Part shown: positions 48,786 through 53,495 of the stretch, piece by piece
Layout of the letters: every line of letters begins with the position of its first letter
Position numbering within the stretch: the first letter of the stretch is position 1
Virus record (IMG/VR): IMGVR_UViG_3300017700_000931
Coordinates: 256,001 to 320,000 of that record
DNA length: 64,000 nt
Source of the DNA: a virus
Taxonomy: Duplodnaviria; Caudoviricetes
Reading direction: 5' to 3' (one strand)
Notes under the pieces: model-generated
Database searches by the model: none
What the model was told of the DNA's origin: nothing
What the model saw: only the letters and a program-made list of their open reading frames with translations
Position numbers and translations under genes: made by a program

Positions 48786-48820
48786 TATCTAACATAAATT
48801 AAAATAAGATGAAAATTATA

Positions 48821-49426
48821 ATGAAGAATCTGAAGCAAATTAAACCTGCTTCATACAATCCAAAAACACGTACTGAAAGTAGAAACTTAAAGGCGTTGAC
48901 CAAAAGTATTCAAGAACATGGAATAATTATTCCATTACTTACTGATGTAAGTGGTAACTTAATTGATGGTCACCGAAGACTAAGAGTTGCTACACTTTTA
49001 AAGTTGAAAGAAGTTCCTGTGTTGGAGACTACCACATCAATGACAAAGGATGAAGCATTTGAGGCGATAAACACAAATCAAAAAAAGATATCAAATAATG
49101 ATATGATGTTTATCTATGTCAATGGCGGTAAGATTCCACCAAAAGCTTTAAAAGAAATCCAAGAGATTGAAGAAATCGTTGGTAAAGCAGACTTGAAAAA
49201 ACTGGCAAACCTTTATGTAACTTATCGTGTTTTAAGTTATGCGAAAAAAGTACAAAAGTATTGCCGAGAAACAAATGACCCTGAGTTCCTACGTAAGTCA
49301 TTACTTTGGTTGGTTAACAACAAAATGACATTTACTGTTCGTAGAGCAATGGAAAGTAGAACAAGCCGAACTACCATCGTAAAAGCAGTTAAAACAAATA
49401 AACCTTTGAAGACCAATTACAATTAA
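48821..49426 (+). CDS. ParB/Srx-like N-terminal domain protein
   Basis: IKPASYNPK, LTKSIQEHG...PL, LIDGHRRL. Confidence 0.85.
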   Translation: MKNLKQIKPASYNPKTRTESRNLKALTKSIQEHGIIIPLLTDVSGNLIDGHRRLRVATLLKLKEVPVLETTTSMTKDEAFEAINTNQKKISNNDMMFIYVNGGKIPPKALKEIQEIEEIVGKADLKKLANLYVTYRVLSYAKKVQKYCRETNDPEFLRKSLLWLVNNKMTFTVRRAMESRTSRTTIVKAVKTNKPLKTNYN

Positions 49427-49498: not shown

Positions 49499-51826
49499 AT
49501 GGAAATAATTAAGAATTCATTTAAAGTTTCAATTAACTTACCTAAAAAAGATTTCACTGGTTTTGATTATGTGGCCAGTGAAATCCAGATTAATACTGAA
49601 TTCAGACCTGCGGTAAATACCTTTACATTTAAATGTAATATTCCAAAATATATATTTGATGTAGTTGCGGATAGTGATATTAAATACTTCACTAACCCAC
49701 CTAAACCAGAACATTATTTTGAACGTAAAGATAAAAAATTTACCACTACATTATCAGCTCCAACCCTTGATGGCTTACTTAAAGATTTACAAAATATATG
49801 TTCTGACGCATTAAGCACCAAAGAAAGAGAAACCGCACAAACTGAGAAATATATTGCAATTAAATTTAAGCAAAGTAATTCTAGCCAAAAAGATAATTTT
49901 AACTTTGCCAGCATGGGTTTTTTAACAAACTCCTCATTCCAATTTTTTGTTGTTCATAAAATTATAAAGTCACCTCATAGCCTTGACCGATATAATTTTA
50001 AGTCAAATGTCACTAATAGGGCATTAAATAGTCCTATTCATAATAAACATAAGGATGGGTGGTATTATTTCGGGATTGGTGTCGTTGAACAATTTCAATT
50101 AATTAAGTGGACCCAAGAGCGTGAGGATTTCCTAAAGGATGTGCAAAACAAATTTGTTTTAATGAATGAAAAATTGGAAACATTCTTAGGTGACATTGAC
50201 GATGATAAAATTATTGAATTAATGTCCAATGCTCAGTTCTTACTGGGTGATGGCAAATAAAAATAAATTATGGAAAATATTGAGAACGCCGCTGAAAAAT
50301 GGTATGAAGGAATGTCCAAAGAAGAATGGATTGAAATGGAAAAAAAACATGGTTATTATGGACATGACATTGGTACTACAAAAGAAGATATTGTAAATAT
50401 TTATAAGTCTGAATTTAGTACAAAAATAACAAAACAATCACCCAAAAATGATTTATCTTGGATGTGGCATTGCTCATCTACCCCAGATAATGTTTTAGAT
50501 TATTCTCATTTAACTGATGTTAGTGATAAAATCACACCAGCATTAACTAAAGCTGCGGCACATGGCTTTAGATTAGCCATGAGGAGAATGGAAGAGTTAG
50601 GTTTAATTGATATGAATGATATTGATAGAAAACCTAATGAGATTGACCAAAAAACATGGGACGAAAAATTTAAAAAAGAAAGTGATGAAGATTAGTGTTG
50701 ATTTAATGTTGTATGCCGTAAGAAACCAAGAAGGTAAGTTCTTCCGGTCCAAGGGTTATGGTGGCTATGGTCAAACATGGGTTGATGATATTAAGTCAGC
50801 AAAGATTTATACTAAATTAGGTCAGGCCAGAAGCCGTGTAACTTGGTTCTCCAATAACTACCCAGAGTTTGGTATTCCAGATGTAATTGAATTACATGTC
50901 ACCAATGGTACGATTCTTAATGAACAAGGTCGTGTGGTGAAAGCTATGGCCAAAAAGAAACGTGAAGAAATTAATCGTGAGATAGGTAATGCTCAACGAA
51001 AAATTAATGAGGCTCAAGAACAATTACAAAGAGCTCAGGATAAAAAGGACCTGATTAAAAATCAACAAGAAAAGATTGAAAAACTCAAAGACGATTTGAA
51101 AAAAATATAACATCATTAAAAACCACCGAACATGATAGCAAGTAAGATACTCAGGACCCCAACCAGAGAAAAACAAAAAAAGAAACAACGCATTCAAGTT
51201 CACCGAACAAAGCGTGAAAGGCTATTCACTTCTGAGGATTTGGCCGGAATGAATTCCTTACTGGCTAAGGCGATTGCAATTATTTATGGAAATTAATTGA
51301 TAATTTATTTGGTAGAACCAAATAAATGTATTATCTTTGTTACATCATTAATTAAAACCAACCAAGTATGAGAGGAATGTCTGAAACCGCAAAAGCGGAA
51401 TACAAAGCAAAATGTTCAGCAATTAAAGTCATTGTTTATGACTTAGAAAAAATGTCTGAAGAACTCACAAAACAGCTTAATGAAAACCCAGATTTTGCTG
51501 GTAACAAATATGAGGTTCGTGAGAAGAGATTAGCTCTTGTTGTTGGTCAAGACATGATAACGGATACTGAGTGTGCTTATTATGTAAATATTGCTGATGG
51601 TGTTCAAATGGATGTCTATAAAGCAAAAGAAGAAATTAAAAAAGAGGATGGAACCATTTGTTGGAGCGTTTCTATGTTCCCAGCATGTACTGTTACCTTA
51701 TTACCAAAACACTTTGAAGATTATAAAGTAGAAGAAACTACACTTGATTTATTTATGGGTGACCGTTTCATTTACAATGGAAGAGTTGTTGGGAATATGG
51801 ATAGTTTGCTTCATAATTTAAAATAA
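49499..51826 (+). CDS. hypothetical proteins (49499-50260, 50270-50695, 50685-51110, 51368-51826)
   Basis: ORF track with corrected starts. Confidence 0.8.
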
Positions 51827-51831
51827 TTCCT

Positions 51832-52770
51832 ATGACTAATATTTTCGAGGGTTTCAACCCACTTACTAAAAGAAGTGTTGAACTTGAATTTCTTCCTGAT
51901 GATAAGGATATTAGATTCTTAACTAACGTTAGTAAATACAAAAAAGAATCTGACATAGATAAAGATGACCTTGAATGGTTAGCGACTATTAAAGAAGGTC
52001 TTGAGGAGATTTCGGACTACAATAATAAAGTAGACCCAAACCATACTGATACAGCAACTGATTACCGATTAATTGATATACCTGAAGATGTAATTAGCTT
52101 AATTATTAAAGCCGAAACTGCTCTTGGGGTTATTTACAATGGTGGTGTTACCAATTACAAAAAGGAAAAACTAAAAGAGTGTTTAACAACTAAGGGATTA
52201 ACACCTAATGGTTATAAATGGGAACTTGATTATATGTCATTTTACCCAGAGGATTATAACCGCAAACTTAAACCAAAAGGTAATTGGATTCTAATTACTG
52301 TTGATGCTCCGGTGGAGTCAGCACCAGCTAAGTATACGATTCATTATGCTACACCAGTAAGCCGAGCATATAGTGGTTATGGTGGTGGTTACAGATTGTG
52401 GTACGCAAGTATTCTTGTTAACAACAAAGAGATTTTCATGCACCCTCGTGAGTATGTCGTTATTCATGATGCTAACTTATTGTTAGAAAACATTGGTAAA
52501 GGATTTGAAATGGTTGAGGGTTCTTCTTCGGCTAAACTGGATAAAAATAAAGTATTTTATTTGAAGTCCAGAGGATTCAACCAAGCAGAGATTTACCAAA
52601 TATTGTTTAAGTCTGTAACAAACAAAGGGTTTTGTCACTTTACAGTTGACCCAGACTTGATGGTCATGTTTGATAATATTAAAGAAGGTTTCATGAGTCC
52701 AGAAATGGCTTTTAGAATTCATGACCACAGACAAAATATGCCTAACTTTAAATTCGGTGAAAAATGTTAG
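51832..52770 (+). CDS. protein with a SufB/SufD-like C-terminal tail on an unrelated N-terminal region
   Basis: SSSAKLDKNKVFYLKSRGFNQAEIYQIL...GFC resembles the SufB/D C-terminal FYLxSRG segment; no beta-helix repeats seen; overlaps sufC. Confidence 0.65.
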   Translation: MTNIFEGFNPLTKRSVELEFLPDDKDIRFLTNVSKYKKESDIDKDDLEWLATIKEGLEEISDYNNKVDPNHTDTATDYRLIDIPEDVISLIIKAETALGVIYNGGVTNYKKEKLKECLTTKGLTPNGYKWELDYMSFYPEDYNRKLKPKGNWILITVDAPVESAPAKYTIHYATPVSRAYSGYGGGYRLWYASILVNNKEIFMHPREYVVIHDANLLLENIGKGFEMVEGSSSAKLDKNKVFYLKSRGFNQAEIYQILFKSVTNKGFCHFTVDPDLMVMFDNIKEGFMSPEMAFRIHDHRQNMPNFKFGEKC

Positions 52771-53495
52771 AAATAAAAAACTTACATACTAGTATTAAAA
52801 AAGTACCAATTCTTAATGGTATTGACCTTAGCGTTGGTGAAGGTGAAGTTCACACCATTATGGGTAAAAACGGCTGTGGTAAGTCCACGTTGCTTAACAC
52901 CATTATGGGTAGTGAAATGTATAAAGTAGATAAGGGAACCATTTCTTTGCATGGTAAAGAAATTCAAAAGATGGACCCAACTGACCGAGCAAAACTTGGT
53001 ATGTTTATTTCATTCCAGACACCATACGAATTCTTTGAGGCTACAACGATTAGTATTCTTACAAGGGTATGGAATATTAACCATAAGGTTAAGGGTTCGC
53101 CAGATGACTTCTATGCAGCTCACACAGACTTATTGAAATTACTTGACATTGATGATAACATGTTAGCTCGTGAATTCAATGTTGGTTTCTCTGGTGGTGA
53201 ACGCAAACGCTTAGAGGTTCTTCAATTGTTATTGATTAAACCCAAATTGATTCTTCTGGATGAGATTGATACCGGATTGGATATTGATAGCGTAATTGCT
53301 ATTGGTAATACACTTGCTACGTACCAAAAGGAAAACAAAGCTACTGTTATTATTGTAACACACTTGTCCACATTTCTGAAGTACTTGACACCGGATAAGG
53401 TTCATGTAATGTCAGATGGTGTTATGGTTAAGTCTGGTGATAATTCATTAGCCAAAAGGATTACTGATGAAGGTTATTCTTTTATTGGTAAATAA
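52764..53495 (+). CDS. sufC: SufC-type ABC ATPase
   Basis: GKNGCGKST, GMFISFQTP, REFNVGFSGGERKR, LLDEIDTGLDID, IVTH, PDKVHVM.DG..VKSGD..LA.....EGY. Confidence 0.92.
   Translation: MLEIKNLHTSIKKVPILNGIDLSVGEGEVHTIMGKNGCGKSTLLNTIMGSEMYKVDKGTISLHGKEIQKMDPTDRAKLGMFISFQTPYEFFEATTISILTRVWNINHKVKGSPDDFYAAHTDLLKLLDIDDNMLAREFNVGFSGGERKRLEVLQLLLIKPKLILLDEIDTGLDIDSVIAIGNTLATYQKENKATVIIVTHLSTFLKYLTPDKVHVMSDGVMVKSGDNSLAKRITDEGYSFIGK

Follow-up and report, generated by a model that had tools for sequence, protein, structure and literature searches.

The DNA considered here (the window) is a stretch of 64,000 nucleotides, corresponding to positions 256,001 to 320,000 of the Caudoviricetes record IMGVR_UViG_3300017700_000931 of IMG/VR; all the coordinates given below refer to it, and all the features lie on the plus strand. 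The locus comprises an ORF of 312 codons (51832..52770), whose product is referred to as the partner and belongs to the long forms of a new family of phage proteins and is a putative SufC-docking adaptor, followed by an ORF of 243 codons (52764..53495) encoding a phage-type SufC ATPase. The two ORFs and their overlap, which had been pointed out in a preliminary description of this DNA, were retrieved at these positions; the sequence they share is the heptanucleotide ATGTTAG (52764..52770), embedding the stop codon of the partner gene and the start codon of sufC. This overlap indicates that the two genes are translationally coupled. The same overlapped arrangement occurs at five further loci (L004, L007, L008, L011, and L017).

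A third ORF of 152 codons (51368..51826) ends five nucleotides upstream of the partner ATG. Its product did not match any entry of Pfam, PHROG, PADLOC, PDB, or Atlas; homologues sharing 40–53% identity with it are located directly upstream of the partner gene at L004, L007, and L008, and it might represent a third component of the cassette in the clade of the partner. The scan for promoters and terminators did not reveal anything above the shuffled controls.

The SufC ATPase and its putative docking groove

The 243-residue protein scored 262.2 bits with TIGR01978, the SufC equivalog model (curated cut-off 212.8), over model positions 1–242 of 243, and 261.7 bits when the whole genome was searched; moreover, it aligned over its full length with Escherichia coli SufC (E = 2e-54). 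In the alignment with the latter, the set of ABC motifs is complete, including the Walker A lysine, Q85, the signature motif, the Walker B glutamate, and the H-loop histidine, and 59 invariant columns are common to the phage-type and the cellular SufCs. Its matches to defence ABC ATPases were generic and far weaker than the SufC score. On these grounds, the protein is a true SufC, as the preliminary description had read it, and its motifs predict that it is catalytically intact. As in SufBC2D and SufC2D2 (PDB 5awf, 2zu0), the motifs required for the ATP-driven head-to-tail dimerisation are kept.

The SufCs of these modules are set apart from the cellular ones (SH-aLRT 99; identity not higher than 47%). 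The phage clade carries the substitutions G92E, S174T, Y204L, and R206T (E. coli numbering), the original residues being conserved in 96–100% of 98 cellular SufCs. The changes specific to the clade affect the groove (G92E), the surroundings of the D-loop, and the stretch following the H-loop, and the phage-type SufCs are marked by E92 together with the sequence LDEIDTGLD. In particular, position 92 is a glycine in 99% of the 98 cellular sequences and a glutamate in all the phage-type SufCs. The E92 codon (53037–53039) falls within the segment encoding the Q-loop and the following helix (residues 85–103; 53016..53072), i.e., the putative docking groove, in agreement with the role in docking described for the Q-loop groove of SufC (PMC6006206). 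The group-specific columns are concentrated in this region, 8 out of 26 lying between E. coli positions 86 and 105 (hypergeometric P = 3e-4).

The partner protein and its similarity to SufB and SufD

The AlphaFold (AF2) models of the partner, with a pLDDT of 81.7 for the whole protein and of 91.6 for residues 120–312, consist of helices (residues 10–142), an SH3-like barrel (about 147–216), and further helices (238–301). No beta-helix is present in these models of the ORF alone, let alone a full SufB/SmsB one, in accordance with the preliminary description, which had seen no such repeats in the first ~225 residues; furthermore, no SufB, SufD, or SmsB chain was found among the structural matches. 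Whole-protein fold searches were dominated by generic helical bundles, and the N-terminal helical extension (residues 1–142; 51832..52257) retrieved only matches of this kind (Z not higher than 7). This extension is restricted to the long forms of the family, the short ones beginning at about position 125 of the profile. The barrel (52270..52479), included in the domain model with a pLDDT of 91.6, resembles SH3 domains over about 55 residues (Z 3.2–3.9; 2.3–3.0 Å), with no chain at Z of 5 or higher, and its Atlas fold matches were DUF4314-like barrels. It embeds the family-invariant motif P-x-E-Y (residues 205–208; 52444–52455); E207 is shared by all 94 family sequences (100%), and Y208 and W152 by 98% of them each. 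The partner is soluble and lacks transmembrane segments. The AFDB match A0A0E2API7 (418 residues), initially read as a SufD, was dropped, since the Atlas result favours a ParA-like ATPase fusion; the ParA-like 418-residue proteins with this fold are from Bacteroidota.

The similarity to SufB and SufD, which the preliminary description had extended to the last ~90 residues, is real, but it is shorter and appears to be limited to a hairpin of 30–42 residues. The partner matched PF01458 (SUFBD_core) at residues 230–259 with 18.3 bits, below the cut-off of 27 bits, TIGR01981 at residues 230–266 with 22.6 bits (cut-off 222), and NF008194 with 15.7 bits (cut-off 489); the profile built on 94 family sequences aligned about 42 residues with SufD (E = 1.4e-5) and SufB (E = 2e-3), and hhalign aligned 30–37 residues with SufB/SufD (probabilities of 95% and 88%). 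The HMMER and hhalign alignments span SufD 349–391 and SufB 421–466. [quoted passage not shown] The hairpin (residues ~236–260) carries the motif F-Y-L-x-S-R-G, and, as in SufBC2D and SufC2D2, the gene of a SufC-family ATPase adjoins that of the protein possessing it. The conserved residues Tyr374, Arg378, and Gly379 of the SufD C-terminal subdomain (PMC6006206) correspond to Y243, R247, and G248 of the partner, which are among the best-conserved positions of the family (98%, 96%, and 100% of the 94 members, respectively).

Unlike SufB and SufD, the partner possesses neither their N-terminal domain, nor the nine-turn beta-helix, nor the beta-sheet dimer interface of the SufB-SufD type. The residues essential for sulfur relay and cluster formation, i.e., SufB C254, C405, and E434 and SufD H360 (PMC5571166), have no equivalents either: the region of the two cysteines does not exist in the partner, SufD H360 aligns with E229, and SufB E434 aligns with G230, which is the E-G reading anticipated in the preliminary description. 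Across the 94 aligned sequences, no conserved Cys/His pattern was detected.

The SmsC2B2 system, an archaeal SUF-like minimal system (PDB 9h7y, 9hbl; PMC12192291, PMC12442378), is likewise made up of two genes, coding for an ATPase and a partner of about 300 residues, and the ATPase is anchored by a helical hairpin of SmsB that has been likened to the coupling helices of ABC transporters; judging from its homology with SufB/SufD, the phage partner may possess a counterpart of this hairpin. However, SmsB is essentially all beta-helix (residues 33–289), forming the B2 dimer (PMC12192291), a structure that the partner lacks, and the family profile did not match any SmsB chain even at E up to 10.

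Distribution of the partner family and linkage with SufC

The partner has 16 close homologues (43–57% identity), and a deep profile search retrieved 133 clusters at E < 1e-3, none of them a full-length SufB or SufD; the family therefore includes at least 130 clusters at 50% identity. It is unnamed in every source database and absent from the Pfam families, PHROGs, and PADLOC, the last two of which did not match the relatives either. The tblastn search of the 312-residue protein against deposited phages gave no match, and the IMG/VR search for related loci with one of the alignments retrieved only one relative, already known.

The distribution of the gene pair, whose inspection had been proposed in the preliminary description, differs between the two forms. 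An overlapping SufC-derived ATPase follows the partner in all eight long-form loci (8/8), which belong to two sequence clades, whereas none of the four short-form loci has such an ATPase nearby. Since the pair recurs in eight independent loci with different flanks, its occurrence is not due to chance. The absence of SufC from the short forms was assessed genome-wide for the cultured Microbacterium phage Matzah, whose gp18 is a short form and whose whole genome harbors no SufC, and in the locus neighbourhood for L010, L012, and L018. The sufC of the Microcystis 'phage' MaAM05 was rejected as an analogue, being embedded in a canonical sufBCDS-iscU block, and because it is disputed whether the genome is viral at all (PMC13623518).

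The long forms also differ from SufB and SufD within the hairpin, position 240 (codon 52549–52551, coding for lysine in this phage) being K or R in 27/27 long forms and glutamine in SufB/SufD (Q371 in SufD). This fits the idea that E92 of SufC and K/R240 of the partner may be matched derived residues of a docking interface, their correlation representing one or two independent evolutionary events only.

Possible roles of the pair

The genome of this phage is complete (362,532 bp), and the searches for Fe-S genes covered all of it. The preliminary description had noticed no sufS, sufE, or sufA near the pair, and this absence extends to the entire genome, where iscU, sufB/sufD, SufU, and an A-type carrier are missing too: PF01592 (IscU/NifU) and PF01521 (SufA/IscA) gave no match at E up to 0.1, and the only match of PF01458 was the sub-threshold one, of 30 residues, in the partner itself. 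The locus thus departs from the SUF system, with its SufS, SufE, and SufA, and also from the viral Fe-S auxiliary genes described so far (IscU and the A-type carriers SufA/IscA; PMC5332604); these are similarly phage-borne and derived from host Fe-S biogenesis, but they code for intact scaffolds or carriers with cysteine ligands, whereas the SUF-derived parts of the phage pair are the motor and the docking element only. The lack of a beta-helix, of the essential residues, of a Cys/His pattern, and of a sulfur donor or carrier gives good support to the view, already expressed in the preliminary description, that the pair is neither a simple Fe-S auxiliary set nor a scaffold of the SufB/SmsB type.

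With moderate confidence, we suggest that the pair is instead an insulated, phage-derived SufC-adaptor ATP motor. Several of these results agree with the further proposal of the preliminary description, i.e., an ABC motor repurposed on a new client domain, because the hairpin is kept, the linkage between long forms and phage SufC is strict, and E92 and K/R240 are matched. According to this model, the two overlapping genes, possibly together with the conserved upstream 152-codon ORF, would code for a self-contained soluble machine of the ABC type, developed by phages out of the SUF system, in which the partner would act as an adaptor that either lost the beta-helix or never had it. Its hairpin would plug into the Q-loop groove of SufC like the coupling helix into the ATPase of an ABC transporter, a short helical element transmitting the ATP-driven dimerisation to the partner in both cases; unlike in transporters, the partner is soluble, and the output would be an SH3-like barrel and a helical bundle. 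The groove (Gly92 to Glu, plus its neighbours) has changed in concert with position 240 of the adaptor (Gln to Lys/Arg), which probably insulates the pair from the SufB/SufD and the SufC of the host. By analogy with SufC2D2 and SmsC2B2, the binding of ATP would dimerise two SufCs head-to-tail, giving a presumed 2:2 complex; the adaptors would thereby move against each other, and the SH3-like barrel and the N-terminal helical bundle of each would then act on a putative client.

A different possibility, also raised in the preliminary description, is that the pair poisons or hijacks the host SUF machinery, the adaptor sequestering host SufC or the phage SufC forming dead heterodimers with it in SufBC2D, so that host Fe-S assembly would be shut down or redirected during infection. 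What the partner retains is precisely the element that anchors SufC (PMC12192291), and the phage SufC has kept the motifs by which such heterodimers might form; nevertheless, both the groove and the hairpin of the present pair have diverged from the canonical residues, which argues for insulation rather than engagement, a simple sequestration would not need a private SufC, and nothing ties the gene to host shut-off. We therefore regard this explanation as rather unlikely for the pair described here. It fits better the short relatives devoid of an ATPase: the consensus of their hairpin is almost identical to the canonical one of SufD, and some members of the family almost certainly must use the host SufC, if they use any. 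Moreover, their known hosts are Actinobacteria, and a preprint reports that mycobacteria have SUF as their sole Fe-S pathway (bioRxiv 10.64898/2026.09.25.754312).

A still more doubtful alternative would be a minimal, non-canonical Fe-S scaffold, in which an adaptor2-SufC2 complex would assemble or carry a cluster where the two adaptors meet, through E207, E229, C268/H269, and Cys312, using inorganic or host-supplied sulfur and serving Fe-S enzymes of the phage. To our knowledge, SufC has otherwise been described only in Fe-S assembly, as the motor of the scaffolds SufBC2D and SmsC2B2. Within the clade of the partner, C268 (87%), H269 (81%), the C-terminal C312 (75%), and E229 (87%) are largely conserved, and the invariance of E207 extends to the whole family; in addition, at least one radical-SAM gene is present elsewhere in the genome, so that the pair might after all have a genuine role in Fe-S metabolism. 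The SMS system is a working two-protein system with no dedicated desulfurase in the operon (PMC12192291, PMC12442378). On the other hand, the models of the partner contain no beta-helix, the positions essential in SufB/SufD are all absent or substituted (PMC5571166), no SufS, SufE, SufU, or A-type carrier is encoded by the genome, and the candidate Cys/His ligands vary within the family as a whole, C268 dropping to 53%; even in the close clade, both cysteines are missing from two members. Furthermore, the C-terminal CxxC of SmsC, implicated in cluster binding (PMC12192291), is missing from the phage SufC, whose C-terminal end has no cysteine and whose sole cysteine lies in the Walker A loop and is not kept by the other members of the clade.

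Finally, the reading of the 312-codon ORF as a functionless, decayed fragment of a captured sufB or sufD beside a captured sufC, which might be suggested by the shortness of the stretch in which the SufB/D similarity survives, is effectively refuted by the conservation of the protein among widely diverged sequences (the 16 close homologues and the 130 or more clusters), as well as being at odds with the very confident fold prediction (pLDDT 91.6), the family-specific invariant motifs absent from SufB/D, the gene order and overlap maintained across unrelated flanks, and the age and distinctness of the SufC clade, which do not point to a recent capture.

More tentatively than for the motor itself, the family in its entirety, with its 130 or more clusters, could be envisaged as a phage toolkit for engaging SufC. 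The short forms might mimic the SufB/SufD hairpin and capture host SufC, shutting off or hijacking an Fe-S biogenesis that is essential in SUF-only hosts (e.g., Actinobacteria), whereas the long forms might have become a private, insulated pair through compensatory change (Gly92 to Glu in SufC; Gln240 to Lys/Arg in the adaptor), giving rise to an orthogonal ABC motor of viral making that would serve a new client.

In this and in many other phages, the protein coupled to SufC has kept the docking element but no part of the scaffold. The partner family is large and unannotated in Pfam, PHROGs, and all the source databases, and its confident fold makes it a tractable target. If the pair binds as proposed, the SufC/hairpin interface would be a portable module reused by evolution, and the pair would show that an ABC ATPase and its partner can become orthogonalised in nature; in that case, the short relatives, which include genes of cultured Microbacterium phages and can be tested at the bench, would point to a possible, so far undescribed phage strategy against the essential Fe-S assembly of the host.

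Genomic setting of the gene pair and its ATPase

The phage genome is complete (362,532 bp, with direct terminal repeats); the window, with a GC content of about 32%, corresponds to its bases 256,001-320,000. Two ORFs on the + strand, the first of 312 aa (51832-52770; the partner, or adaptor) and the second of 243 aa (52764-53495), overlap by 7 nt (ATGTTAG), with the partner stop codon TAG falling within the first codons of the downstream gene; such a stop/start overlap typically marks translational coupling. Both genes lie inside a long series of small co-directional ORFs, in a region where promoter- and terminator-like matches showed no excess over shuffled sequence. The GC skew, negative up to about 36 kb of the window apart from a positive patch at 10-14 kb, turns positive there; this flip coincides with a switch in gene orientation, and the pair belongs to the + strand block running from about 36 kb to the window end. 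A 205-aa ORF (48809-49426) carries a 'LIDGHRRL'-type motif that, by eye, recalls ParB/sulfiredoxin-like nuclease domains. The preceding ORF (51368-51826, + strand, 152 aa) ends 5 nt before the partner ATG; it had no family or fold match, it has homologues at the same position in three related loci (L004, L007, and L008; 40-53% identity), and it is a possible third gene of the cassette.

The downstream ORF encodes a genuine SufC. It scored 262.2 bits against NCBIfam TIGR01978 (cut-off 212.8), spanning the whole model, aligned over its full length with E. coli SufC (E = 2e-54), and retains the Walker A motif, the Q-loop Gln, the signature motif, the Walker B Glu, and the H-loop His. The preliminary description had reported a clear SufC overlapping the end of the 312-aa ORF, and both the score and the overlap bear this out; its remark that no sufS, sufE, or sufA lies nearby can be extended to the complete genome, where the search retrieved no cysteine desulfurase (PF00266), SufE, A-type carrier, IscU/NifU, or full SufB/D. 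The sole Fe-S client both sought and found in the phage is a radical-SAM enzyme, encoded by a single, distant gene outside the window (G000:C1:341524-342027, locus L014; PF04055, 34.8 bits). Outside the window there is also one more ABC/SMC-like P-loop ORF (G000:C1:17892-18431, locus L003; a 313-aa open frame), which matches the SufC model very distantly, at 46 bits, and has no relation to the module.

Homology and predicted fold of the partner

Curated models reach only residues 230-266 of the partner, far under their cut-offs (18.3 bits versus 27 for PF01458, and 22.6 versus 222 for TIGR01981). A profile of 94 family members increased the significance (E = 1.4e-5 for SufD and 2e-3 for SufB) and not the extent, which was of about 42 residues, and hhalign aligned 30-37 residues with SufD 355-391 and SufB 437-466. 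The likeness to the SufB/SufD C-terminal region, estimated by eye at about 90 aa, is a true homology, but one of only 30-42 residues. SufB and SufD bind SufC through their C-terminal helical domains (PMC5571166); a review locates the contacts of these helices at the SufC Q-loop, beta6, and alpha2/alpha3, and names Tyr374, Arg378, Gly379, Ala385, and Phe393 as the conserved residues of this domain in SufD (PMC6006206). The HMMER and hhalign alignments place the first three at Y243, R247, and G248 of the partner.

AlphaFold models of the whole partner (pLDDT 81.7, 16 sequences) and of residues 120-312 (pLDDT 91.6, pTM 0.83, 94 sequences) depict helices at 10-142, a small beta domain at 151-229, and helices at 238-301. 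SH3-type barrels were the only folds to superpose on the beta domain (about 55 residues at 2.3-3.0 A, Z 3.2-3.9); the fold search retrieved no solved chain at Z 5 or above and no SufB, SufD, or SmsB chain among the matches. No beta-helix had been recognized in the partner, and the confident models agree, showing helices and an SH3-like barrel instead; a full beta-helix, which would have refuted the preliminary reading, was looked for in the predicted structures and not found.

Probing two structure libraries with the model of residues 120-312 (window 52189-52767) retrieved Bacteroidota 'ParA-like' ATPases of about 418 aa, carrying Pfam CbiA/ParA/AAA_31, whose C-terminal 140 residues or so are like the partner domain (TM 0.52 over 125 residues at 3.2 A for the Atlas match to the family; probability 1.0 for residues 280-415 of AFDB A0A0E2API7). 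Going by these matches, the partner domain may also occur fused to another P-loop ATPase class.

Phylogenetic distribution and the SufC docking groove

Sixteen members, at 43-57% identity, make up the close family, and several of their contigs measure 350-365 kb; with E<1e-3, an exhaustive profile search collected 133 clusters (formed at 50% identity), none of them a full-length SufB/D. The common core spans residues ~125-280, and most members are just 180-250 aa long; 58 out of 94 match PF01458, at its tail only. No family match was found in PHROGs or PADLOC. The sequences split into three clades: A, including this phage (9 representatives), and B (17 representatives) have long partners, with an N-terminal helical extension, followed by a SufC of 242-243 aa and by a SufC-like ATPase of 204-206 aa, respectively, while S (62 representatives) has short partners, starting at about profile position 125, and no downstream ATPase. 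A SufC-type ATPase lies directly downstream at all eight long-form loci examined (the window, L004, L006, L007, L008, L011, L016, and L017), overlapping the partner gene at most of them, with variable flanking genes; none lies near the short form at the four loci with usable flanks (L010, L012, L018, and L019). The clade-B ATPases, though shorter, have SufC as their best family (about 150 bits versus about 78 for the next). At L017, a clade-B locus, a 356-aa protein (1425-2495) with a weak PAPS_reduct (PF01507) match is encoded about 500 nt upstream of the pair.

Cultured Microbacterium phages (Matzah gp18, L020:3926-4582, and its kin Cinna gp16, Terij gp18, and Margaery gp16) and one Streptomyces genome carry short forms, which are annotated throughout as 'hypothetical protein'. 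[quoted passage not shown] The Streptomyces sp. protein (P0288), on a 522,813-bp contig, is presumably within a prophage or island.

SufCs of 242-243 aa that are 57-98% identical to the window SufC make up about 21 clusters; beyond them, identity drops straight to 47% or less (cellular SufCs of many phyla). In the maximum-likelihood tree, a branch with SH-aLRT 99 separates 14 module ATPases (those encoded beside long-form partners) from 32 out of 34 cellular sequences. The two exceptions (P0220 and P0241) are long-branch SufC-like proteins that, though grouped here with the cellular ones, have the phage-type signature (Glu at E. coli position 92, and LDEIDTGLD) and share the derived residues of the module ATPases; they probably mark further, unsampled module clades. 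When 22 phage-type SufCs were compared with 98 cellular ones, 26 columns proved group-specific (conserved on one side, variable or different on the other), eight of which fall in E. coli positions 86-105, that is, the Q-loop and the next helix (hypergeometric P = 3e-4). The Gly that 99% of cellular SufCs have at position 92 is replaced by Glu in every phage-type sequence, the three readable clade-B ATPases included; the cellular LDE[T/S]DSGLD reads LDEIDTGLD in the phage type, and H-Y-Q-R-L reads H-L-S-T-F in clade A. Taken together, the identities, the tree, and these columns make the phage SufC a lineage of its own, and an old one, whose docking groove has altered. Just ahead of the hairpin F-Y, SufD and SufB have Gln (Q371 and Q444); the same position (240) is Lys/Arg in 27 out of 27 long forms, from both clades, but just 28% of short forms have a basic residue there; the short-form consensus, [D/E]-Q-L-F-Y-L-R-S-R-G-I, is almost that of SufD. 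The long forms and their private SufC seem to have changed together, although the two long clades represent only one or two independent events.

Possible function and relation to known systems

We see about an even chance that the adaptor docks the phage SufC and that ATP-driven dimerization moves two adaptors acting on a client. The adaptor hairpin would dock in the Q-loop groove; ATP would drive head-to-tail SufC dimerization, as established for SufBC2D (PMC5571166, PMC6006206), shifting two adaptors, and their SH3-like barrels and N-terminal bundles would act on a client. By analogy with the SufC/SufD and SmsC/SmsB docking pairs, and with the ABC coupling-helix interface, the phage pair may work similarly.

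An unlikely alternative for the pair is that it poisons or hijacks the host SUF; it is more attractive for the short forms, which, judging from their consensus, would keep a canonical hairpin suited to canonical host SufC. That the partner is a non-canonical minimal scaffold appears still less probable. The cluster-assembly residues are C254, C405, and E434 in SufB and H360 in SufD (PMC5571166); the partner lacks the region that would carry the two cysteines, its E229 and G230 align with SufD H360 and SufB E434, as the E-G reported earlier from the sequence, and no Cys or His is conserved family-wide (C268 in 53% and H206 in 57% of members). Y243 (98%), R247 (96%), and G248 (100%) are among the best-kept positions of the family, whose own hallmarks are an invariant Glu (E207) in a P-x-E-Y motif and G150/W152; that the pair is a dead remnant is hardly credible.

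The partner cannot be counted as SufB, SufD, or SmsB, failing each of their defining tests bar the SufB/SufD hairpin, and the phage SufC passes the family cut-off yet has substitutions at several positions that are almost invariant in cellular SufCs. IscU and A-type carriers are the viral Fe-S genes reported to date (PMC5332604). Microcystis phage MaAM05, deposited as a 'jumbo phage' and the sole deposited 'phage' with a suf operon, harbors a canonical sufB-sufC-sufD-sufS-iscU block adjoining panC (L021; MW495066.1 267786-273195), and a published comment disputes whether this genome is viral (PMC13623518). Literature searches turned up no account of phage proteins like these; the pair amounts to a motor and docking element, both derived from SUF, placed on a new, phage-specific domain. 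Matzah gp18 and its kin, in cultured actinobacteriophages, offer a ready experimental handle on the family.
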